DNA of 63,533 nucleotides, filler included, from Collodictyon triciliatum (taxonomy: Eukaryota), in NCBI GenBank assembly GCA_043381765.1. It is 3 parts of 3 records of this genome, joined end to end, with 100 filler letters (N's around TTAATTAATTAA, not from the genome) between each part and the next. Parts side by side here need not be neighbours in the genome. Positions count along the whole stretch, not along the records: positions 42,917 to 63,533 come from JBHJMP010001175.1; 2 more parts are not named here. One strand, written 5' to 3'. This document shows, piece by piece, positions 47,442 through 61,738 of this stretch (positions are counted from its first letter, which is position 1; each line of letters opens with the position of its first letter). The position numbers and the translations under genes were made by a program. The notes under the pieces are model-generated. The model was given only the letters and a program-made list of their open reading frames with translations. It was not told the DNA's origin and made no database searches.

Positions 47442-48442
47442 CTAGACTTGGGGATTGAAGGATGGATCAACCTCGTGGCCGGGCAGGTAGATGGAGATGA
47501 CGGTGATGTTATCTGTGGAGCCCTTGTGGGAGGCAAAGTTGCGCATCTTGCGGGCAATGGAGTGGACGTTGCCCGAATGTGTGATGTAGTCTGCCGCCTT
47601 CTTTGCAGAAACCACGTCCCACAGGCCGTCGCAGGCCATCAGGACATGTGTGCCCGGGTACGAGTTGGACATGGTGCGGGCAGGCGGGGTTGCGGGGACG
47701 AGCGGGATGACATCCACATACGGCGCGGGCGAAACCATCGGGCGCAGAGATGTGTCGCCGAGGGCACGCGAGACCCCCAGGACGCCGTTGACGCGGCCGT
47801 CCTCCGTGACAAAGCCGCCAAGACCTTCGATGCGGGCCTTCTCCTCCTGGTCTGAGGGCTTGGCCTGCTTGGATTGGTAGACCAGTTTGCCGTTGCCGTT
47901 TGCCTGGACCTGGCTGACAATGCACATGGAGTCCCCCACAGATGCAACAACCAGCTGGTGCGGCTGGATGAGGCACAACAGCACGCACGACCCGTTCGGC
48001 ACCTCGGCTTTTGTGATGGCGTTGTCCGCGTTGCTGATTGCCTCCTTGATGGCTGTCACGCCATCACAGCCGCTCTGCAGGCGCCTCTGCACGTCCAACC
48101 CCATGACTCGCGAGAGATACACTGAGCATTCACGGCCCCCGTGTCCGTCAAAGACAGCAAAGAGTCCGCTCCAGAGCCCATGGGCATTGCCGCTGCTGTG
48201 CAGGCGCGGCCACAGAATCACCTCATCCTCCATGTGCTCTCGTGTTCCTTTTGTTTCCGCCAACGCGTACTCGCACATAGCTGGTCGTGAGGCATCTACT
48301 TTGGCCTGTTTGGAGAAATGCAGTGAATCCTCNNNNNNNNNNNNNNNNNNNNNNNNNNNNNNNNNNNNNNNNNNNNNNNNNNNNNNNNNNNNNNNNNNNN
48401 NNNNNNNNNNNNNNNNNNNNNNNNNNNNNNNNNNNNNNNNNN

Positions 48443-48522
<80 letters not shown>

Positions 48523-49552
48523 TTATTCCTTGTGATAAATGGAAATTTAATTAAATAGAAAAGATAATAAACGAACCTGTTCTGCTGCTGCTTCCTCTAC
48601 AAGTTTGTCAGAGGATTGTGATTTTCTCACAGCTTTTAGACGATACTCCACAACGATATTCCAGTCGACACACTTCAGCAAGATAGCATCCATAATTTCC
48701 CCCACAGTAGCATTACGTTCACAAAGGCGATTCAGGCGCTGCTGGAAATCAGTGTCTGTTGTGTCGAGGAGAACCTGTCGGAGCATATGGTTGCATTGCA
48801 CCAAGGATTCGATCATCGGCTGGAAATTAGCAGGAATCTTGTTTCCTCGAAGATCAAGGACGCTCAGCTTGGCTGCGGAAAAGCCGCGCTGAAGGATGAA
48901 GCGCCATTGGCGGTCACTGAGATCAATGTCCCGAAGAGAAAGGCTTTCAAGCAAATCTGTGACAGGCGACTGCAGCACAGTTTGCAACTCATCCATGGCC
49001 GGCAGCGACCAAGTGTTGCCGCTAAGGTCAAGATGGGCAACACACTTGCGATTTAAAACAAAGTTTAGGATTTCACGCAGGGCTGTTCCGGTCAGGTCGC
49101 AATGCGGAAGGCGGATCTGATCGAACCCGCCCACCTCTTCAAAGCCCTTCTGAATTAATGGGACAATCTTGTCACCCAGAGGGATTTTCCTACAGAAGCC
49201 GATGGGCAATTGCGATCGGTTAGGTTGAGATCTGGTCCATTTCTTTTCTTTTAACATATTTATATATCGCATGCTTCTCCTAGTTATTTTGAAATAAGTA
49301 AAAGACTGCGAATGAATAAAGAGGATCGTTGAAGTTAAATTGTGCCTACATTGCCACGAACGGCATCAGTTTAGCACTTGCGGACAGCTGCTGCAACTCC
49401 TTCTTGAGCCCAGCGAGAAAGGGATTAATGACAGTCTTTTTCATGGAGGGATCGTAGACCTTTGGCAGCTCTGCGCTCATGAAGGCAAAGTAGGTTTCGG
49501 CCTCTGCATTCCAGTGGATAAAGACGGGAAAGAGAGAGATGTTCAGCACCAT
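47442..49552 (-). CDS. LRR (RI-like) + PP2C/PPM protein phosphatase, 3 exons (last acceptor in gap 48333-48442)
   Basis: Exon 2 LRRs IRLPHCDLT, VAHLDLSGNTWS, LESLSLRDIDLS, LSVLDLRGNKIP. Last exon carries the PPM motifs GTREHMED, FAVFDGHGG, ASVGDS, RVNGVLGVSRALGD, MACDGLWDV and GSTDNITV; TAG at 47442. Confidence 0.9.
48443..48521. repeat. (AAC)n followed by (AAT)n, intronic
   Basis: Compound microsatellite at a gap edge. Confidence 0.95.
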
Positions 49553-49959
49553 AAAAGAGTGTAAACGTGGTTCTGGAGTCGATAAGACAAACAGCAATAA
49601 TATAGGCACACGATGAGCTCGTGCCTGTTTCTTTGGCTTTGAAGCGTTTTTTTTTTTTTTTTTTTTTTTTTTGATTATTCAGCTTTAAACCAAAGTGCGT
49701 CGAGAATAATAAGGGGAAAGTAAGGGGGCATTACATACTTGGGTTCTGAAAGAGCGGACCTTTCGCGCACGCACCTCCCATGATGAGTTTCTCTTCGTTT
49801 CGATTGTTGACCCCAGGGGCTAGACAAAAAAAGTGTAAAAAAGAGTGATGAAGGTGCATAACGATCCTCGAACGAATCAGCCAACATATTCACCCTGTGA
49901 AGTTTCTCTGGTTCACATATGACTATAAAGAACGGGAGAACAACCAGAAGAGAGGGGAG

Positions 49960-50100
49960 AGGAAAGGAAAGGAAAGGAAAGGAAAGGAAAGGAAAGGAAA
50001 GGAAAGGAAAGGAAAGGAAAGGAAAGGAAAGGAAAGGAAAGGAAAGGAAAAAAAAACAAAAAACAAAAACAAAAAACAAAAACAAAAACAAAAACAAAAA
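49960..50100. repeat. (GGAAA)n then (AAAAAC)n compound microsatellite
   Basis: Direct inspection; intergenic. Confidence 0.95.
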
Positions 50101-50751
50101 GGAATGAAAAGAACAGAACAGAACAGAATAGAACAGAAAAAAAGAAAGAAAAGAAACAGCAACGCCGCCTATTCCGCGTTGAACATCCACACAATGTCCA
50201 GACAGAGCCAAGGAGGCAGTCAAGAATGAGGCTGCACAAGACACAGCAGAAGCAGCGGCCAGAAAAGGCCCACCCAGGACGGAGGCCATCGCACCGCCCG
50301 ACTCGTTGGCCGCGCCTTCCGGCCCTCTCGACCCGCCCGAAAAACGGGATCACACACGACCGTCTGATCGCTTTGGTCGCACCTCCGCTATGGTCTCACG
50401 CAAATCCCATAATACGCCTTGGCTTCATTGTTTCTTTCGCCCAAGGCCATCGCATCCGTTATGACCAAAGGCGCTTTGGGAAGAATCTGTCTGGGGGCGC
50501 GCTTATGGCGGACTGCGTTTCATTGAAATATTCGCCGTTACGGGCTTCCTGATGTGTTGCTTTCAACGGAATATGAATGAGATTTTCCTAAAGGGGCCAA
50601 AGGGATTGCCCTTTTGTGGAGTGTTCAGATTTGCATCGGCGAGGGGCAGAAGAGCTAGTGGGTTTGCTGTCTTATCCTTGGTAAATGGCGACGGACGGTG
50701 ACGGATGGTGGGGTGGTAGGGGTGATGGGAGACAATGAGGGGTAGAGAATG

Positions 50752-51256
50752 TTATAAGTCTGCGCGTGTGATTTCGTAGTCTAAGGACAGCGTGAATGGC
50801 AAATCAACCAGTGGGTGCAAACACTCCCGAATCTGCTGTCGAGCCGTACTATTTCGGGTGAACGCAAAAGTCTCGTAGAACTTGGTCAGGTTCCCATCGT
50901 TCAGCGGAACAGCTTCAATCCAGTTGGGCAGAGATTTTGTGCTGTATCATTCAGAATCGGGCGTATTGGTGATGGATTACGAAAAGTAAATGAAGATGAT
51001 GTAATCTCTGCTTTGATATGGTGACAGGTATTGGGATATGGTTATGAATATCCTAAACATACTTTAACCCGTAGCACACAAGCGCTCTAACTTTGGCATC
51101 TTGTTTTCTGGCAAGAGATTCTATGGAATTCACTGTTTGAACTCCTGTTGTAAGGCTGAATCGCCCGGGCGGGTCTTGTGAAGTAGCTATGTGCCGTTTG
51201 AAGAGCAGGGATTTGTTTTGAATATGAACTCTTTTTTTTTCTTTTTCTTTTTCTTT

Positions 51257-51314
<58 letters not shown>

Positions 51315-54300
51315 GTTCATTTATATGCGTGTATTAAATTTCATATAAACTATATATCACAAAGATGACCACGGCTTAATCAGCACTTAAAGCTTTTAAC
51401 CCCGCATCAGGTGGAGGGAAGAGAATATGGGATAAAGAGAAGTGGTAAAACTACATGAAAATTACCAGTTTCTGAGAGCTTTTCAAAGTACTCCCAAATG
51501 TGATATTTTGAAAGAAACCGGTTGGATTTGAATCCGTAGAGCATGATTTTTGTGAAAGCCGTGCACAGTTGACCTCTGACCAAGGTATGAATTGCCATGT
51601 TTTGTGAATCATCTCCAAACGATATCTTTGTGAAGCAAAAGGATTGTGAACCAAAAATGAAACCTAATGGCTATAGATATGGGTTTATGTTATAAATAAG
51701 GTTATCAAAGGTTACTTTATCGGGCGCTTCATTAAACCTCGACCGTATTTCAGCCACCACAGACTGCAATCGAACGATTGGCTCTATTAAATCCATCCAT
51801 TAAAGAAGGGGGTAACAATTTAATTAGAACTGTATCTATTTAGTTCATTGCTGAGAAAAAAATGAGGAGAAACTGTTGCGGAACAAGAAATAGAAAAGGC
51901 ATTCGTTCAGACGTCTTACCCAGATTTAATGGAGATGGTTTTGCCGGGAGCTCCTGAATCTTTGTTTGGCTCTTATGTTGTTCTGAAACACAACATGGGG
52001 ATTGTATTAGTAGATAAGAATGTAAACGTGATTTATAATCAGGAAGCGTAAAAAAGTAATTATATGTCTGGTTGTTAAATAATAATAAAAATAGGCCCAG
52101 CCCAATATATATATAGTTAAATAAGACCATATCTAATCGGAATTCCGAGAAAGCATTTTTTTTTATTCGATGGTTGATATACTACGTGATATTAGATATG
52201 AAGGATATACCGTGGAGTGCAGAGAGCAATGATAAAGGACTCGAAAGGTTTTCGGAAAACATTACACTCCAAGATGCCTGAGAGGCTGGCTGTGTTTCTG
52301 CAGGAGCGGAGGATTGGGTAACACTTGTTTGGTTCAGAGGATTGGCAGGATTTGCCTGGTTGGCTGGCTTTTGTTGTGATTGTTGTGGTTGTTGCAGCTG
52401 CTGCTGGTTGTAAGTTTGCTGATTTTGTTGATTTCCAGTCACGTGCGTTGCTGGTAACTGCACGGGATTTGGTGAGGTTTGCATCACGGGTCTCTGAGTG
52501 ATGGGCTTCTGGGTCATGTGTGTTGGAGGGGGCTGGGTAGGAGGAAGCGGCGCCCTCTGTGAAGCAACAGTATAGTTGCTTGCTGGAGGCAACTGAGAAA
52601 TGCGAGAAGCATTTGGTCTTTGAATCGGCATCGGGTTGTAGTTGGTGATATTTGGAAGTGGTCCCGATACAGAGTGAGACGAAGTCTGGCGGGACATGGG
52701 CATAGCCGTAGGAGAAGGCTCCAACATGGGTCGGGTCTCTTCATTTGCGGGCAGAACTTGGGTTTGGAGCTTCATTATGGCAGTTTCTAAAGCAACACGG
52801 TTCTCTCGTTCTTCTTGCAGAGATTTCTCCAGCTCTTTGATTTTGTCCCACAATGACTTGGTCGCTGATTGAACAGCATCCTCCACGATACTCTTGAGTT
52901 TCTCAGGGTCGAAAAAGTGGCCTGAAGGAACTGGCGAAGATGGCGTTTGCGGTAATTGTTCAATACTTCCTGTTCCTTGGATTTGATCGGCAACTTTCCC
53001 ATCTGCACCAATTTGTGATATTTGGAGTGATGATGGTGTGGATGGCGTTTGCTGAAGAGGTTTTTCGGACTGCTTTTTATCCTCCTTCTTTGATGTTTTC
53101 TTGGTGTCTTCTTTACGGGCGAGCTCTTCAAGGCGAGCAGCAAGTTTCTGCTTTTCTGCAATGCGTGCTTCCTCTCGTAGCTTAATCAGCTCCTCCTTCT
53201 CCTTAGCTTCTCTTTCTTTGCGCTCTTTTCGCTTCTGAGAAAGTATTGGGGTGTATTTCCTTCTGACAAGCCAGCCTCGGACTCGTTTTTGTACGCGAAT
53301 GAGCCTTGCAAGGTATCTCTTGTATTTTCTTCTGGCCACAAACATTCGGATTACTACAAGCAAAGTATTTTAGTCAATATATTGCTCTGACAAAATAAAT
53401 ATGTTGCGAGTAGAAGCTATGGAATATTCATATACTATTCAATAAGAATATTCTTGGCTCAAGAACAAAAAAAAAAAAAACTGATGTAAATATGAACAAG
53501 AGTCATATATTTGATTTTTTTTAAAATAATAATAAGAATAAGAATTACAAGCTTGTATCTTTTTGGCCGCATTTCTGTATCGAATACGACGGAATCGCTT
53601 CAGGAATGTAGCCGAAATAATGAGCATCACAACCGCTGTCTGGCGGAAGCGGCGGAAAGCACGAAGGCAGCGCAACCGAACACAAACTTTTTCGAGGCAA
53701 AAAATACCAGAAAAGTATAAGTTAATTTCAATGAAAAACATAGCAGAATATAACATTTACACAAGAAAAATATTTTTACTTCTATGGAAAGCAACAGCCG
53801 CTGTGTGGGCTGACTTCCATCTCTTTCGAACAAGCCACTTTCTAACTCGCTCAGCAATTGCTGGAGCAAGTTCTTGATATTCATTTGACCGGAGTTCATC
53901 CAGAAATGCCAACTAGTTATATGAGGATGTATGAACACAGTTAAGCGACGACAAAATCAGTATCAGCCTATTAGAAGAGAAAAAGGGGATTGGCACAGAA
54001 TTTTGAAAAGAAGAAAAGGTCAAGGTATTTTGGATAGAAAAAGTATATCCAATAATCTGAGTATACAAGGATTACGGTGCTGTTATTTTTTATGGTTTAA
54101 ATTCGATGATGATACTTTTTTATTTCTCTTTTTGTCAAAATATGCAAGGATAATGCCATATAAAAATGGGAGGGGAATACACAAACCTTTCCTGCTCTAA
54201 AGAATATTTTTGTGATACCGAGCTGATAGTCTTTCTTATCGATGTCGAGTGCCATCAATAGCGCCTCACAAAATGATGAGGAATCTAGATTGGCAATTAT

Positions 54301-57300
54301 TGGAGGCATCATATCACGATACCTAAGATAGGTTGTAAAAAAAAAAGTATTTGTATTGAAAATTACACTGCTGGCCAGACAAGAGTAATTTTATTAGCAT
54401 GATTTTACTGCGGATGTATCAAATGTAACTAATAAGTACCTGGAATGCAAGTCATCATAGGGACACCGAGTGGGATATCCTGTATGCATCAATCGAAGTG
54501 CTTCGAGCATTCCACTACATCGGAGCTGTTCTAAAACCTTTGTGCCTTCAAATATACCAGACTTTTGAACCGAGTTTGGTTTAATGCATCGTATAAAATG
54601 CGATGCTGTTTGATTTAGTGACTCCATTAATTCGCCAAGTTGTTTCTATACGTAATTTTTTTTTAAAAAAAAAATCGTGTCAGAAGATATAAGAGAAAGT
54701 AAAACTAATCAGGCTATAACGACTACTTGGTTTACTTGTAGTTAAAGGAAACAAAATGTGCTCCACTTTACCGTGAATTTAGTGCCAACAGTACTCAGGC
54801 GGCCTTTCTTTTGGCTTTCCGCGCCTAGTATATCAGAGAAGAGAGACTTGATAAACTCTAACTCACTCACAGACAATAGTAACTTTAAATCGTCATGCAG
54901 AGCATCATTATTTTTTTCCAAGAATCCTGTTTTTGTATTATACATGACCTAGGTATATATAAAAGGAAAAGTATAAATTAATAAAGCTATTGATTCTGTC
55001 AAAATTGCAATATATATGTTGTTAGATATATAGCTTAGATTACGTCATTTATGCGAAAACATAATTCTACGCAAAATAACTGGGCCATGATAGACAGATG
55101 AGAATAATAACGCCTCATTACATCGTATATCATAAAAAAAAAAAGACACAAAAACAAATAAATAAATAAATAAATAAACAAATAGAATAAAAATCACCTG
55201 TCCAGCAAAATGTCTGATTGAAAATCCTTCGTCTGCTCTTAGTGTCTGGGTCTTTGAAACTTTAGGTGCTTTTAGATAAGGGTGATTAGGATAAATAGTA
55301 TGGACGCGACTGGTGAAAGTTTGATTAGTCCCTTTTGGTAGTTTTGATTCCTCGTCTAGTAACGCCAAGATACCCGTTGTTTTCTAATTTTAAGGAAATA
55401 GATTTGAGGAGACGAAGAAGAGGGGTCTGGACTGAGTGGGGTTACAGATGAAATTGGTTGGAAAAATATAATTATGCTGAGAATAGTATGGTGATATAAG
55501 GCAACCTTTTCAATCAAATCGATGCATGCTTGATTATCATCATATTCAATTCTAGTGTACTTGATACCCTCTCGGTCATAAATATCTTGTTCCTATAACA
55601 GATATATCAGCCAAAAGACAATAAGCATATGAAAATGGATATTGATTTACTCTTGTATCTCAATTGCTACTTGTTTGAATTTGAGATATTTTCGGGTATA
55701 AGAAAATAGTTCACCTGCCGGAAGATTTGTTGATTGAAGAACTGTTGCAGTTTTTCATTTGCGTAGTTGATACAAAGCTGCTCGAAGCTGTTAACCTACG
55801 TTTTTTTTTTCTTGCTTATTAACGAAAGTATGTATGAGAAGCAACGATTATTTTATTCATGTGTGTCTAGAGGGGAAGACTATCACATTAGTAATTTATC
55901 GTTTCGGAACGTGTGATAGGGATGTAAATATGGAGCTCACATCAAAATATTCGAAACCATAGATATCAAGAACTCCGATATTAAGAAATCCAGCCTCGTT
56001 TCCTTTGAGACCACCGTTTATTTTTTCGACAACAAGATCAAATAAACGAGAATACATGGCCTTTGCAAGGCCATCACGAGAGAAAGCGGCCTGCAGAGTT
56101 CGATAAGCGCGTATATCAGTAATTTTAACTTTGTAAAATGCACATTTGACAGTTAGGATTGCTTTTGGGAGAATGCTTGGCACTTACATCTTGAGCGTTG
56201 AGAGGAATTGTATAGAAACTCCCACTTTTTGACTTTGACTTCATAATCCTTGTTGTCATTCTTTGCTGGAGTGTGTCAGACGAAACTCCCAACAATTTAG
56301 CAGTGATTTCAAGCTCTGCATATATAAAAGAATTTTCAAAAAAATTAATTAATTAGTGACGAAAAAAAGATAGGCCTAATACAGGATATCAACTAAGGAT
56401 TACCCTCTGTATTTGATATGGAGCATCCCTCTTGGCGCTTCTGAGCTTCGAATTGGATGTTACAAAGATGCAATATAGCAGAAAGAATGCGAACGATGGA
56501 TTCTTGCTCTTCGTCACTAAACCCAACCAAGTGCATGGCTTCCTTTGATTGCATCAGCAAGATGAGTACAGTCACATGGATAGATCAAAAGCAACCCGCT
56601 AAGACAAAAATAGAGGAAAATATGGTTCTTGGGGATTAATGAGAAGTGTAATAGTAAGGAAGCCGAATGTAAATAAAATGAGAGTGAAAAGGTGCAAGAA
56701 AACTCACTCTAACACGAAGGTAATGATCAGAGTCGGAGACACCTTCGATTTCATAGCATCCGCTTTGATTCAATACCACAAAGCTAGATGCAGGTCCGAT
56801 ATGAAATTTTTCTATAAATTAACCGAAAAATATTGAAAATGAGGTATGTTGATTAATAATATCAAAAATATGTAATCAAAGCTAAGAAGGTGATATAATC
56901 AGCATCAATAGTTAAATAGATAGAAAATGGAAAGGTCAACACCTCTATCTTCTTTTGAGGCACCAGCACACAGTTGGTAGAAAATGTGATAATTACGCTC
57001 TCCTTTAATTTGTGTTACTATTCGAGACTAAATACGACAAGTTGGTGGCGATTCAGTAGACATTAAGAAGAAAAAGAGAGAGTATAGATGATGTCGGCAG
57101 GGGGGCAATTAATTTCAAGGAAGCAAAATCTTCTATCGGAAATCACCTTCTCAAGAAGATCTAATAACGAATACATTGAGAAATCAATTCAGTACATGCA
57201 CGAATAAAAATCAAGTTTCCATTTTCCGGTTTTGTAGAAATTGATGGATAATTTATGTTTCCTAGTCTTTTTCATAGAAATATATCTCGTGCAAAGACAA

Positions 57301-59435
57301 AAGTAAAATCTGCATATATTGGCTGGGGGAATATAGTAAAGAGCATTTACATGTCACGATGGACGCTCCACAGACGTGATATTGTTTGTTAAAATGTATT
57401 TGGGTGAATTTTCCCTGGGGTTAATTTGACAGGGTGATTAGCAACAAATGAAATTGCTAAATATGGTAAAATATTCAGTCATATAATAACACGCAAGAAA
57501 AAATAAAACGAATCTATAAAATGCGTATGTCATTTACTAATAATAAATAAATAAAAGAATTTTGACAATTTGAAAAAAAAATCAAGATAAAAACGAACGA
57601 ATCTGGACGAATTGTTGTTGCGAAGGGTTTTTGCATTTCCGAGTGCTTCGAGAATAGGATTTGCCTCTAAAATACGATGCTCAAGAATTCCAACCCCCGA
57701 ACGTCCGCCTACCGCGGCCAAGTATTTCATCACGATTTTGCTGGTCTCTGTTTTTCCAGCTCCACTTTCTCCACTGATGAAATGAATATTGGTGAGTATT
57801 GTTCGATATTTCTTCCTAAGATTTGTGCGAGGAGAGGGATGGGCTAATAAAATAATAAATGAAATATATCACAAACTACTAAATTTATGGAATGTAATTT
57901 ATACTTTTGATTGCGTTTTTTCTTTTTCTTTTTTTTTCTACTAATAACAGCGGTATGGATGACAAAAGGAAAAGTCTACGAGAAATCGGTTATGAAATAT
58001 TTTGTAATGGATTTGCATCGCACTCCATTTCTACCTGACAATAATTGACTGACTCCTTTTCTCTGCCCCACAATAGACAACAAAGCATAAAGAAAAAATT
58101 CAGTATGGGATGAAATCAAGCATTTTAATTCGTTGGGAAAGGATTATGCCAAAGAATCGAGATTTTGCTTGAAAAAATTAAATGAACAAGTGATTTGACA
58201 GAAAGAAAAATAGTATTATTAAATGGGGTAATCAATTAACCGGCTTTCATGAGACGATATGCTCTGTCGCACGTAGCAAATACATGAGGAGGTAGGACAC
58301 CGATGGATTTCCCTTGGTATTTCCTTAGTGTCTCTTCATCATACATAGGAAGGTTCCTGAATGGGTTCACCGCGATCAAGATGTATGCTGTATACGTCTA
58401 TATTTGCGATGGGAAAAATAATTGCTATTAAGTCATGATAGTTAGATTGAAATGTGGAAGGGAAATCATGTAGAAAAGAATTATGAATCTACGTATATAC
58501 ACGCACATTTTGCGTCAAAGAATATTCATATTTGATACATTTCTCTACAGAATATTAAATAAAATCATTCAAGAGACAATAGGATAGGAGAAAGGGGGAA
58601 TTGATGTATGAACCCCTTCCTGCAAATCAGAAAAATGTATACTTTTATCTTGTATTTTAAGAGCCATATTAAATCATTCGTTACATAGATTTCATTTCTG
58701 GAGAAACGATAATTTATATTGTGCAGCAAGCTGGGTTCGTGTAGATGCATCAATTGGGTATTGTCTTCTACTCCATCTTGGTTGGAGGGGTTCACCGGAT
58801 AGGCATGACCCACCGGTATGGTTTGAGTCTGTATCGGGATTGATGTGAATATGGGCAGTGAATAAAGTCAATCATTGGCCATGTATTTATATGGATCAAA
58901 CCGTATTTCAAAAAATAAGAAGGAAAAGGAAAGAAATAATAGATAATGGAGAAAAAGGGGGGAAAAAGGGGGGAAAGGAAAATTTTCCTTGGGTAGTAAT
59001 TAATTCCATGTGAAATGCAAGTATAAGGGTTTCTTTTTCTTTTTCTTTTTCTTTTTCTTCTTTTTCAAAAGAGTGGTCATGGATATCCTTACTTTTCCAT
59101 CCTTTCGTGATTTTACAGTAACTTGCCCATCATTTTGGGAGACGACGTCTGATAGAGCATATCCAGCTTCATTGTCCGCAACCCAAACAGCGGTTTGGTT
59201 CTATGTCACAAATGAGGTGAAAGTGAGGGCAGAAAAGAATTTATTCTCCTGGTTATGTCAACGTATCCCTTGTCACTAATTCCCCAAAGGCCAAAAAAAA
59301 AAAAAACTAAACTTTAATATTGGATTGTGTTGAAGAGAGGGGTTAAGTAGAGTAGCATAGGCGGAGGGGAAGACGAAAGCGAAGAATGAATAGAAAAATT
59401 GAAGTAAGGAGGCAACTCACCTGCGAATGTGACAT
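50752..59435 (-). CDS. Myosin VI-like heavy chain with 2 IQ motifs, charged helix, P/Q-rich linker and C-terminal RUN domain; over 25 exons
   Basis: Motor [112 protein letters not shown], all closest to remembered myosin VI segments. IQs [14 protein letters not shown] and [17 protein letters not shown] motifs [66 protein letters not shown] at 50752. Confidence 0.92.
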
Positions 59436-59957
59436 GACTGAAGCGTAAGAGCACTGTAAAGGACTGTCAGAAACGACCTAGCTTGGAGTGGAGAGGACCG
59501 CCACCAAGCAGCAGAACAAAGCAGAGGCACAGGACAACCACCCGCTTTGATTGGCAGAGCAAATGATCAGAGCATGGCACGACACCCGAGAATACTTGAG
59601 AGTCTGAATACCAATCAGTGGCTACAGAAAAGAGAACAGAACAGAACGGAGCGAGTGCCGCAGATCAAGCGAGCAAACCAGACGCAAGCAACAGGGCTGC
59701 CCAACAGATGCGGGCTATGCAGATTCAACAGCTCCCATTCCCGCGCTGGGACTGGTTCAAGCGGGGCAGGAGCGTGGATTCCACATAAAGACGGTCGAAT
59801 TCCCTTTATTGGCCGGAGGGCGGAGCGCCGGGCCGGCAGCAGCGCAGCGAGATGCAGGAGATACCGGACGGGAGAGAGGGGGTGCGTAGAGGATGGCACA
59901 GACAAGAGAAGAGAAGAGAAGAGAAGAATGAAAAAGAGGAGGAGGAGGCGGGTCGGT

Positions 59958-60812
59958 TTATGAGCAGAAGGCGTAGGGCCTGTGCAGGGCGGGGGCGTGG
60001 ACGTGGACGTGGACGTGGGCGGGGCGCCTGCGGAGGGGGCCGGAGTGGAGGGGGCGGTGGGGGTCGTGCGAGACGTGCGGGGAGGCGCAGGCCAAGGCGT
60101 CCGGGCGGGGGTCTCTGCGGCGGGGGCGGGCGGGGCCGTCGAGGTGCGTGATGTCTGTGCCGCGCAGCTCCTCCGTGGCGTTGAGGGCGCGCAGCTTGAG
60201 GCACAGCGGGCACTCGTGCAGGTGCCGCCGCCAGTGCTGGTTGCACGCGTTGCAGAACGGCGCAGACGCCCCCAGGTACCGGTACACCCGCTTCTTCTCC
60301 AGCCCGCAGCCGCTGCACGTGCGCGTGGCCCGGTGCTGCTCCTTGTGCGGCCCCGCCGGTGCTGCGCTCGTCGTCGTCGTCAGAAGCAGCGGCAGCGTTG
60401 TCGTCAGCGTCGGCGTGCCTGCCTGTGGCTGCCCAGCCGTCGGTGCGGGTGCTGCTGTGGCGGCGCTTGTGGCTGTGGCTGTGGCTGTGGTTGTGGCAGC
60501 ACCTGTGGCAGCGGGGCAGTCAAAGTCAAAGAAGGGATCGTCCAGGACCGGGAGGGCGGCGGCGTCCCACAGAGCGTCGAAGGAGGAGACGGGCGAGGCG
60601 ACGGACGCTTGCGAGGAGGCGGGTGGGGAGGCCAGCGGCGTCGGGTCGTCGCGTGTCCAGTGTGCGGAGTGCGTGGCGAGGAGGTGGTCCGTCCCGAGGG
60701 GTGCGCCGAACGGCTCCGCCTGCGCAGGGAGGTCCAGCAGCTCCGGGAAGAGGTCCGGGCATGAGGCGAAGAGGCTGCTGTCCAGGAAGAGGCTGTTGTC
60801 GTGGTGGGCCAT
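59958..60812 (-). CDS. Atypical GATA-type zinc finger protein (C-x2-C-x17-C-x2-C plus extra CxxC), single exon, GC-rich
   Basis: 284-aa ORF with an acidic/hydrophobic N-terminus, an A/T-rich linker and RTCSGCGLEKKRVYRYLGASAPFCNACNQHWRRHLHECPLC; strong GC3 bias; TATAAA box at ~61135-61140 on the minus strand. Confidence 0.75.
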   Translation of the reverse strand: MAHHDNSLFLDSSLFASCPDLFPELLDLPAQAEPFGAPLGTDHLLATHSAHWTRDDPTPLASPPASSQASVASPVSSFDALWDAAALPVLDDPFFDFDCPAATGAATTTATATATSAATAAPAPTAGQPQAGTPTLTTTLPLLLTTTTSAAPAGPHKEQHRATRTCSGCGLEKKRVYRYLGASAPFCNACNQHWRRHLHECPLCLKLRALNATEELRGTDITHLDGPARPRRRDPRPDALACASPHVSHDPHRPLHSGPLRRRPAHVHVHVHAPALHRPYAFCS

Positions 60813-61738
60813 CGAGTTTGGTGGTTGGTGGTTGGTGGTTGGTGGGTTGGTGGTGGGTTGGTTGGTTGGTTGGTTGGGCGCACTTGTCGGTCAGAGCAGG
60901 AAAATACGTCTGCGCTGAAAGCAAGAGGCAGGGGGGCGGGTTCTGCGGGTGGCAAAGGGGCGTTAGATCAACGGCAGGGCTTTGGGGGAGACACGTCGGC
61001 ATTTGGGGCAATGCACTCACCGGTTGGGCGAACTCGGGCGCGGGTGATCCCGGGGGAGGGCGGAGGTGTTTGGTGGGTGAGGATATTGTGATTCCCCTCG
61101 CGGAAGGGCTCCTGTTGCGCCAGTTGCGCGCTCATTTATAGTCTGCTGCCTTATGTGCAGCCGTGATCTCTGGCGCGATTATGTTCTGGATGTGTGGAAA
61201 GTGTAATTTATTCCAGATTTGTTCAAATGGATTGGGTTCTATGTGCGGTGACGTCACAGGTTGTGTATCTCCCTTTTCATTTCGGGCCTTTGCAGCAGGC
61301 GAGATTGTAAGAACAGCCCTGGAACACCTAACTGTATAGCGGAATACATACCTTTTCTATACGATATTCATACTTAATTATATATCATTCTTAATGAAAA
61401 TTATGGCAATTATTGATTGATAAATAATAATTTTATTATATTTTCCATATTAAAATGTATTCATATTAGGGGTATAGACCTCTATTACCCAAAAGAAGAA
61501 TTCAGAACGGGCGAACAGCAACGCCTGTCCACTGGCCAACCGTCCTTGGAAAACCAAGCGGCCCAAAGGGGAAGAAACAGTCAACCTTATTTGGCAGAAT
61601 TCTATTCTCGGAATTACCCGCAAGTATGTGCATATTCAGGAATAAATACCAAAAAGGATTTAAATCCAGAAAAGGTCAAATAAAGAAATCAGGGAATATC
61701 ATCGCCAAGCCTCAATTGTATGGATTCTACAACACTCT

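Follow-up and report, generated by a model that had tools for sequence, protein, structure and literature searches.

The minus-strand locus at positions 50752 to 59435 of the DNA analysed here raises the question of whether a myosin motor and a RUN domain belong to one protein and, if they do, what kind of myosin that protein is. The DNA, hereafter the window, is a stretch of 63,533 nucleotides (filler included) from Collodictyon triciliatum (assembly GCA_043381765.1), made of three parts of three records joined end to end; positions count along the whole window, and the locus lies in the part taken from JBHJMP010001175.1. An earlier note had read the locus as a myosin VI-like motor whose tail ends in a RUN domain. 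Our analysis makes it likely that one expressed gene of a Diphylleia-like protist (CRuMs) occupies the locus and encodes a dimeric, unconventional VI-like myosin with a RUN cargo end that belongs to an old RUN-tailed family and not to strict holozoan class VI.

The myosin-RUN gene (minus strand, 59435..50752) comprises 27 exons, chained from short open frames that translate into myosin-like sequence. Its 26 introns, 88-287 nt long, are without exception GT..AG, and the GC content is 44% in exons and 31% in introns. The coding sequence of 4203 nt begins with an ATG at 59435-59433, ends with a TAA stop at 50754-50752 on the minus strand, and encodes 1400 aa (1400 codons plus the stop). Both ends lie exactly where the earlier note had placed them, and all three motor motifs that it quoted are present in the translation. 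From the N-terminus to the C-terminus, the protein consists of an SH3-like N-terminus, the myosin motor, a post-converter segment, IQ motifs, a charged helix, a coiled coil, a P/Q-rich linker and the RUN domain, and the tail order proposed before (IQ, charged helix, coiled coil, P/Q linker, RUN) is thus recovered in the model.

Splicing of these parts into one message is seen in the contigs of four public runs, coded X1-X4, aligned to the gene; a contig-free stretch at about 56.9-58.0 kb carries no evidential weight. The type of the runs is our guess, and we read them as RNA-derived because intron-free GT-AG joints arise only from spliced RNA. The loose ends of the X2 contigs resemble what we take to be a cDNA template-switch primer. 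Fifteen listed joints, together with 57773|58035 from the piece table, confirm at least 16 of the 26 introns at exact exon ends. Every joint has CT..AC ends on the plus strand and falls on model exon ends after the stated cut offsets, and the contig-confirmed introns include one with an unusual AAG acceptor at 56542. The remaining 10 introns, intron 1 included, have collinearity with the Diphylleia rotans ortholog P0002 as their sole support. In particular, an X1 contig spans 2715 nt from exon 17 across exons 18-27 and the stop codon to the 3' untranslated region (UTR), with internal lengths that agree with the exons unlisted in the table of pieces; three of the four X1 contigs compared are at least 99% alike. 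This contig, with the collinear P0002, supplies the exon chaining from motor to RUN that the earlier note had proposed to confirm. The motor and the RUN domain are one expressed gene with one transcript.

Three further observations concern the contigs themselves. An X2 contig continues from exon 2 directly into intron 1 (59201-59276), and represents an unspliced precursor or else an alternative 5' end. An 81-nt run of T on the plus strand (51232-51312) sits within intron 25, and a (GGAAA)n and A-rich microsatellite lies just downstream of the gene at 49956-50156; the contigs appear to be cut at such repeats.

The window's own protein has no entry in a collection of 5.8 billion proteins, where a first search with a tail exon returned a Diphylleia cluster only. 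The sole close relative in that collection is a pair of D. rotans Trinity transcripts from EukProt, P0001 and P0002. P0002 (EP00002_P034221, 1360 aa) contains motor and RUN in a single open reading frame (ORF), is collinear with the window model from end to end, and aligns without gaps at every junction in the conserved parts. Specifically, the two proteins are identical at 683 of 780 motor residues (87.6%), 72 of 90 residues of the IQ part, 131 of 270 residues of the mid tail (48.5%) and 185 of 220 residues of the pre-RUN motif plus RUN (84.1%). The PLSLL part of the pre-RUN motif is shared more loosely with Rigifila and with EukProt row P0005. In the motor tree, the window groups with Diphylleia (100/100) and then with Rigifila (100/99), and the same grouping recurs in the RUN-domain tree (100 and 92). 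Because the three form one clade in both trees, the gene predates the diphyllatean/rigifilid split, and the motor and the RUN domain are, on these trees, inherited together within CRuMs.

The end of the tail is a true RUN domain. In the ortholog, Pfam RUN (PF02759) matches at 73.5 bits over positions 1-130 of 131, and the domain ends 5 residues before the C-terminus. Among single window exons, the last reaches 28.2 bits over profile positions 78-130, above the cut-off of 22, and the first RUN exon, exon 25, matches at 14.2 bits (positions 1-37). The last exon by itself (62 aa) is too short for a word-indexed search to indicate absence: of 11 candidates, none gave a scored match. An AlphaFold2 (AF2) model of the ortholog's last 224 residues, built on an alignment of 14 RUN-tailed myosins, reaches a predicted local distance difference test score (pLDDT) of 84.4 and a predicted template modelling score of 0.76, with the N-terminal RUN helix at pLDDT 93-98. 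Searched with Foldseek against the PDB, this model returns RUN domains at all of ranks 1-10 and an E value of 0.56 at rank 11; the top 10 comprise RUSC2-Rab35, NESCA, FYCO1 (rank 4), SKIP-Arl8b, Rab6IP1-Rab6, Rap2-interacting protein and PLEKHM1-Arl8b. The C-terminal RUN fold is therefore solid as a predicted structure, and the claim of the earlier note that a RUN domain stands in place of the animal cargo-binding domain holds.

At the other end of the protein, single window exons match Pfam Myosin_N at 30.2 bits and Myosin_head at 41.7-89.2 bits, with a weak IQ match on exon 22 (14.8 bits). The ortholog matches Myosin_head at 829 bits (profile positions 1-679), Myosin_N at 33.3 bits and IQ at 20.5 bits in 2 stretches, so that both profiles put forward before as a check, RUN and Myosin_head, match in the window exons as well as in the ortholog. 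The P-loop GESGAGKT, switch I NSSRFGK and switch II DIYGFE are intact in the translation. The full-length motor match and the intact catalytic motifs place the protein in the myosin superfamily (PF00063), and Myosin_head together with a C-terminal PF02759 in one polypeptide places it in the RUN-tailed myosin family. The best PDB sequence matches are to myosin VI (711 bits), followed by 7dhw, titled 'Motor domain of myosin' and elsewhere a myosin-XI motor domain (650 bits), Dictyostelium myosin II (621 bits) and myosin Va (610 bits). The best 120 of 7999 scored motors are VI or VI-like, with 5 exceptions, which are plant or fungal.

A motor tree of 45 rows and 693 columns was inferred under LG+C20+F+G4 with posterior mean site frequencies (PMSF), ultrafast bootstrap and the Shimodaira-Hasegawa-like approximate likelihood ratio test (SH-aLRT). 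Of 59 candidate rows, 14 had been removed before inference because they were near-duplicates or fragments or, in one case each, because of a long branch or an odd composition; three plant-type rows, of which two carry a DIL tail, served as the root. Myosins bearing the class VI cargo-binding domain (CBD) form a clade (100/99); together with Thecamonas row P0023 (joined at 97/94) and a group of PH-tailed rows (100/99), they make up a starred clade supported at 95/91. At the base of the VI-like assemblage, the tree leaves the branching order of the RUN-tailed lineages and of other protist paralogs unresolved. From its sequence, the motor is VI-like and nearest to myosin VI, and it falls outside strict class VI as defined by motor clade, insert 1 and tail domains.

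Between the motor and the RUN domain, the ortholog model places the charged helix within one long predicted helix (residues 740-906, pLDDT about 60) and the coiled-coil segment in a helix at 960-1020, and gives the linker a pLDDT below 50. When two copies of the coiled coil were modelled together, the score was 0.46, compared with 0.01 for the best control, with parallel, in-register a/d contacts, a partner pLDDT of at least 81 and agreement between runs in at least 91% of contacts. The calibration mark is reached by 21 of 30 proteins solved as one-chain pairs and by 0 of 23 solved as single chains. The prediction supports a coiled coil that dimerises in parallel.

Based on this layout, we propose how the protein might work. 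Calmodulin-like light chains would bind the post-converter segment and the IQ motifs to form a lever, which the charged helix would lengthen, and the coiled coil would pair two such chains into a parallel, two-headed dimer. The long flexible linker would let both RUN domains reach a membrane, where each could bind a GTP-loaded GTPase of the Rab, Arl or Rap kind, such that the motor is recruited to an organelle only when the GTPase is on. For the organism, this would point to an actin motor that is recruited to membranes by a small GTPase.

The RUN-tailed design has been described before. Sebe-Pedros et al. 2014 (PMC3942036), in the text available, report a C-terminal RUN domain common to the myosin VI homologs of T. 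trahens and E. huxleyi, which agrees with the mention in the earlier note of a RUN-bearing myosin VI-like protein in Thecamonas. The work relied partly on one haptophyte sequence, and it leans toward gene transfer as the explanation of the RUN tail shared by Emiliania and Thecamonas. A literature search joining myosin with RUN or PF02759, or with these taxa, found only the 2014 paper (supplements of myosin papers lay outside its scope). The main text of PMC5583752, as far as available, makes no mention of Diphylleia or Collodictyon. CRuMs are placed, in abstracts, as branching at the base of Amorphea.

The design is not confined to these species. Myosin_head and RUN occur together in 14 of the best 120 motor matches, so that the 'very rare architecture' of the earlier note does not stand. 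The named rows belong to Rigifila ramosa, Rhodelphis marinus, Picozoa sp. (two) and E. huxleyi, and they are joined by one further EukProt row and eight metagenomic ones. Nor does the architecture hint at the host, as had been suggested, since it occurs in several supergroups; it is the ortholog that points to a Diphylleia relative (CRuMs) and not to an apusomonad. A search with the RUN tail found 209 proteins at E <= 0.001 among 1.84 billion representatives. Mainly myosins had been expected; the motor, by its own profile, was present in only 5 of the best 150 matches. Many of the other 145 are short, and some carry a RUN domain identical or nearly identical to a myosin-borne one (P0133 = P0007). 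These short matches are probably gene fragments, so the count is not one of independent architectures. In nine long motor-less rows, the RUN domain is accompanied by PH, TH1, VPS9 (weak), RA + SH3, or Pyr_redox + FNIP. Row P0153 (1550 aa), related to this RUN subtype, combines PH, Myosin_TH1 and a C-terminal RUN with no motor detected, and looks like either a headless myosin-I-like tail or a mis-predicted gene.

In a quick RUN-domain tree (133 rows, LG+G4), 15 of 17 myosin-borne RUN domains fall in one group of 37 rows (SH-aLRT 92, not starred). The 22 other rows of this group are mostly short, and some have a RUN domain identical or nearly so to that of a myosin and are probably fragments. 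The RUN domains of Rhodelphis and of row P0189 lie outside the group on long branches. In the motor tree, the RUN-tailed rows never form one clade: they need 3 changes, and just 1 is needed in 0 of 200 bootstrap trees. Among the paralogs, Rhodelphis has three sister copies (P0017, P0027 and P0038) with RUN, PX and CAP-Gly tails (100/99), and Diphylleia has at least 4 further VI-like paralogs (P0122-P0124 and P0028) with no Pfam tail domain. Because the Rhodelphis sister paralogs carry different tails and the VI-like paralogs of Diphylleia have multiplied, tail swapping after duplication is common.

Several results weigh against the reading of the protein as a dimeric VI-like myosin with a GTPase-binding end. 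The window motor lies outside the CBD clade (100/99) and outside the wider clade at 95/91, with which two quick trees agree. The outgroups are plant-type myosins and one fungal myosin (5 rows, then 3; three with a DIL tail), and the limits of 'VI-like' are set against these alone. Insert 1 is absent: the alignment of the window protein to Delta-insert-1 constructs is unbroken, whereas that to the wild type falls into two stretches, and the multiple alignment has a gap at that place. Insert 1 is also absent from a Capsaspora CBD-type row and is therefore not universal in class VI. The class VI tail domains PF16521 and PF21521 were not found by Pfam in the ortholog or in the window tail exons. 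Additionally, Kollmar and Muhlhausen 2017 (PMC5583752), in the available text, reject a class 6 placement of E. huxleyi and other haptophyte sequences. The dimer and both structure models are predictions, and the result for the coiled coil may reflect likeness to solved coiled coils. A PDB sequence search with the RUN tail returned NESCA only (E = 0.084), which leaves this domain far from every solved RUN domain by sequence, and its GTPase-effector function is one that we infer from the fold. The post-converter segment is also similar to a degenerate IQ motif, and W..RK.F recurs in much the same form at that place in the plant-type outgroup. Of the earlier label of a myosin VI-like motor, the nearness to class VI stands on the 711-bit match, but the position outside the canonical class VI clade (95/91) runs partly counter to it.

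The direction of travel turns on this post-converter segment. The phmmer alignment to myosin VI passes through it, and its core RWLVRKRW is nearly the same in a Capsaspora CBD-type class VI motor. On a profile made from 12 CBD-type class VI rows the segment reaches 31.3 bits, compared with 19.4 bits on an outgroup profile of unequal size, built from 4 plant-type rows of which three have a DIL tail. Each of the 42 non-CBD VI-like rows scores higher with the class VI profile in this unequal comparison (12 versus 4 rows), and the margin of the window is the smallest of the 42. The full AF2 model of P0001 (1174 residues) has a pLDDT of 75 overall and about 90 in the motor. VIA on this model gives Z 42-46 for all myosins and so cannot rank the classes; the aligned ranges alone were used, as weak evidence. 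In these ranges, only insert-2-bearing myosin VI chains align to residue ~781, at a root-mean-square deviation (rmsd) of 7.3 Å, whereas other classes stop by ~750. Further basic amphipathic stretches lie between the segment and the two canonical IQ motifs. The invariant tryptophan of the segment was considered as a class VI marker and rejected, as plant-type outgroup rows have one at the same place. Because the segment is also IQ-like and the outgroup pattern is similar, reverse direction is not established, and the protein could be VI-like by descent yet plus-end-directed, with the post-converter segment as the degenerate first IQ of an ordinary lever and the reverse gearing arising later, on the holozoan class VI branch. 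In line with this, the segment fits the IQ pattern save for its Q and G, the plant-type outgroup rows align their first IQ there, and the narrow profile margin, the missing insert 1 and the position outside the clade that holds canonical VI point the same way. On the other side stand the uniform preference of the 42 rows, the shared Capsaspora core and the range that only insert-2-bearing chains reach, though with that rmsd and tied Z, as well as the ~85 residues that separate the converter from the first Pfam-detectable IQ. We regard plus-end movement as a serious possibility that falls a little short of probable.

The remaining alternatives concern the unity of the gene, the task of its RUN domain and its history. 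The motor and the RUN domain could be two adjacent genes, or an assembly chimera, wrongly joined. D. rotans isoform P0001 (1174 aa) does end just past the homologous exon-22 donor without RUN, and read-through of the same donor in the window (52211) meets a stop after 9 codons; but the contig linking exons 17-27, the same chain in P0002 from another species and 14 further proteins with the same architecture make this scarcely credible. The donor at 52211 is confirmed by a contig joint and is taken as genuine because the conserved pre-RUN motif ends exon 22, and P0001 looks like retention of the homologous intron. As for its task, the RUN domain, instead of being a small-GTPase effector, might tether the myosin to a second motor or to an adaptor, such as one for kinesin or dynein or a scaffold, or might act as an autoinhibitory module by folding back on the motor. 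RUN domains of the RUSC/NESCA type also bind non-GTPase partners, and the nearest RUN by fold is of this type (4giw, target-normalised TM 0.85); FYCO1 ranks fourth, and identity to any GTPase-bound RUN domain is just 12-22%. Five of the top 10 structural matches were nevertheless solved in complex with Rab or Arl in the GTP-bound state, and another three are RUN structures of a Rap2-interacting protein; we consider a GTPase-independent role unlikely. Finally, the RUN-tailed myosin might have spread among distant protists by horizontal gene transfer, with the CRuMs copy acquired, as the argument in the available text of PMC3942036, the patchy distribution and the failure of RUN-tailed rows to form one clade in the motor tree would suggest. 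The gene itself, with 26 spliceosomal introns and host-like composition, speaks against this, as do its single clade with Diphylleia and Rigifila in both trees and the presence of the architecture in at least five named lineages. Moreover, the grouping of 15 of 17 myosin-borne RUN domains is consistent with a single fusion and later tail swaps such as those of the Rhodelphis paralogs. Acquisition by transfer is thus improbable, and an ancient origin is more likely.

A RUN-less product is a separate matter: retention of intron 22 (52210-51983 in the window) could yield a motor without its RUN domain in both species, or could merely reflect unspliced RNA.

Returning to the reading of an expressed, RUN-tailed VI-like myosin, the distribution indicates that this design is less rare, and probably older, than thought. 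A stronger version would make RUN the ancestral cargo module of the whole myosin VI-like lineage, with a RUN-tailed motor bearing the post-converter insert that predates the split of CRuMs, Amorphea and Diaphoretickes, near the last eukaryotic common ancestor, and with the CBD, PH, PX and CAP-Gly tails as later replacements. We hold this version tentatively and think it rather less likely than its converse. Backward movement along actin is known for no myosin class other than VI, and the age of this class is disputed. If RUN were ancestral, it would settle the disputed question of whether a motor of myosin VI type, and possibly transport in the reverse direction as well, reaches back that far. 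The window gene and its relatives bear on this dispute in any case, as the RUN-tailed form is expressed in CRuMs and present in Rhodelphis and Picozoa. To the previously known Thecamonas and Emiliania, our analysis adds the design for CRuMs (Collodictyon, Diphylleia and Rigifila), Rhodelphis and Picozoa, and provides intron-rich, well-supported gene models that can be used to date the reversal of directionality and GTPase-coupled cargo binding.

Table. Parts of the RUN-tailed myosin gene in window coordinates, with the evidence for each.
Feature	Coordinates	Strand	Evidence
Whole coding region	50752..59435	-	Exon model; at least 16 of 26 introns matched by spliced contigs; collinear with D. rotans P0002
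Exon 1, start codon and 4 codons (MSHSQ)	59421..59435	-	N-terminus matches P0002 (MASHQNQ vs MSHSQNQ)
Myosin N-terminal SH3-like domain, exons 2-3, residues 9-55	58787..59191	-	Pfam Myosin_N, 30.2 bits on exon 2 alone
Motor (head) and converter, exons 3-19, residues 60-728	54187..58774	-	Pfam Myosin_head on single exons
Post-converter segment, exons 20-21, residues 729-779 (51 residues)	53667..53912	-	Alignable with myosin VI insert 2 (phmmer, multiple alignment)
Two canonical IQ motifs, residues 812-829 and 836-852, across the exon 21/22 junction	53253..53570	-	Pfam IQ
E/K/R-rich helix, 58 residues, 64% charged, single-alpha-helix-like	53067..53240	-	Composition
Coiled coil, 63 residues (962-1024), predicted parallel homodimer	52737..52925	-	Two-copy complex prediction
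P/Q/S/T-rich linker, ~154 residues, poorly conserved, predicted disordered	52275..52736	-	48.5% mid-tail identity to P0002; low pLDDT
Short pre-RUN motif (begins SW, contains PLSLL), end of exon 22	52212..52274	-	Conserved between window and Diphylleia
Exons 23 (51982-51920) and 24 (51783-51716): short linker and N-terminal RUN helix	51716..51982	-	Joints 51982|52211, 51783|51920, 51625|51716
RUN core, exons 25 (51625-51466), 26 (51186-51063) and 27 (50941-50752)	50755..51625	-	Pfam RUN; AF2 model; Foldseek

Around the myosin gene, a PP2C phosphatase gene (Pfam PP2C, 154 bits) lies downstream at 47445-48596 on the minus strand and is interrupted by an N run, an assembly gap. Between it and the myosin gene, a 272-aa open frame at 48550-49365 (minus strand) shows leucine-rich-repeat-like periodicity and has no Pfam match at E <= 0.01. 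Just upstream of the myosin gene is a GC-rich block (59600-61200) with 58% GC, compared with 34-42% in the myosin gene, and with long open frames that overlap in several frames; a minus-strand ORF of 310 aa within the block (59961-60890) contains a C-x2-C...C-x2-C motif and likewise has no match in Pfam. The window has comparable islands of high GC at about 26-28 kb, 34-36 kb and 46-48 kb, and Rfam has no match in it.

Compared with known systems, the protein shares with animal and holozoan class VI (PDB 2bki, 2vas and 8w41) the N-terminal SH3-like domain, a segment alignable with insert 2, and an IQ motif followed by a charged helix, and differs from it in having a RUN tail instead of PF16521/PF21521, in lacking insert 1 and in its place outside the CBD clade. 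By fold, its RUN domain is closest to those of RUSC2 (6if2, with Rab35; E 1.1e-7, target-normalised TM 0.78) and RUSC1/NESCA (4giw; E 1.4e-7), at 22-25% sequence identity, and the RUSC proteins are scaffolds with SH3 and without a motor. The T. trahens RUN-bearing protein is known here from the available text of PMC3942036 only, and the Thecamonas row P0023 has no RUN. Like the window protein, it and E. huxleyi P0099 (EMIHUDRAFT_448407) have Myosin_head followed by a C-terminal PF02759 RUN. P0099 and the other RUN-tailed myosins also share family-specific RUN motifs and a RUN domain that ends a few residues from the C-terminus. The E. huxleyi RUN falls in the same 37-row group as that of the window; its motor is ~46% identical to the window's, and the host lineage differs, the window being from CRuMs. 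The orthologs of D. rotans (P0002) and Rigifila ramosa (P0004, EP00004_P020691) are unannotated transcriptome ORFs for which the literature search turned up no describing paper. P0002 departs from the window protein in the mid tail, where the P/Q linker carries indels, and both orthologs have the same domain order as the window protein throughout.

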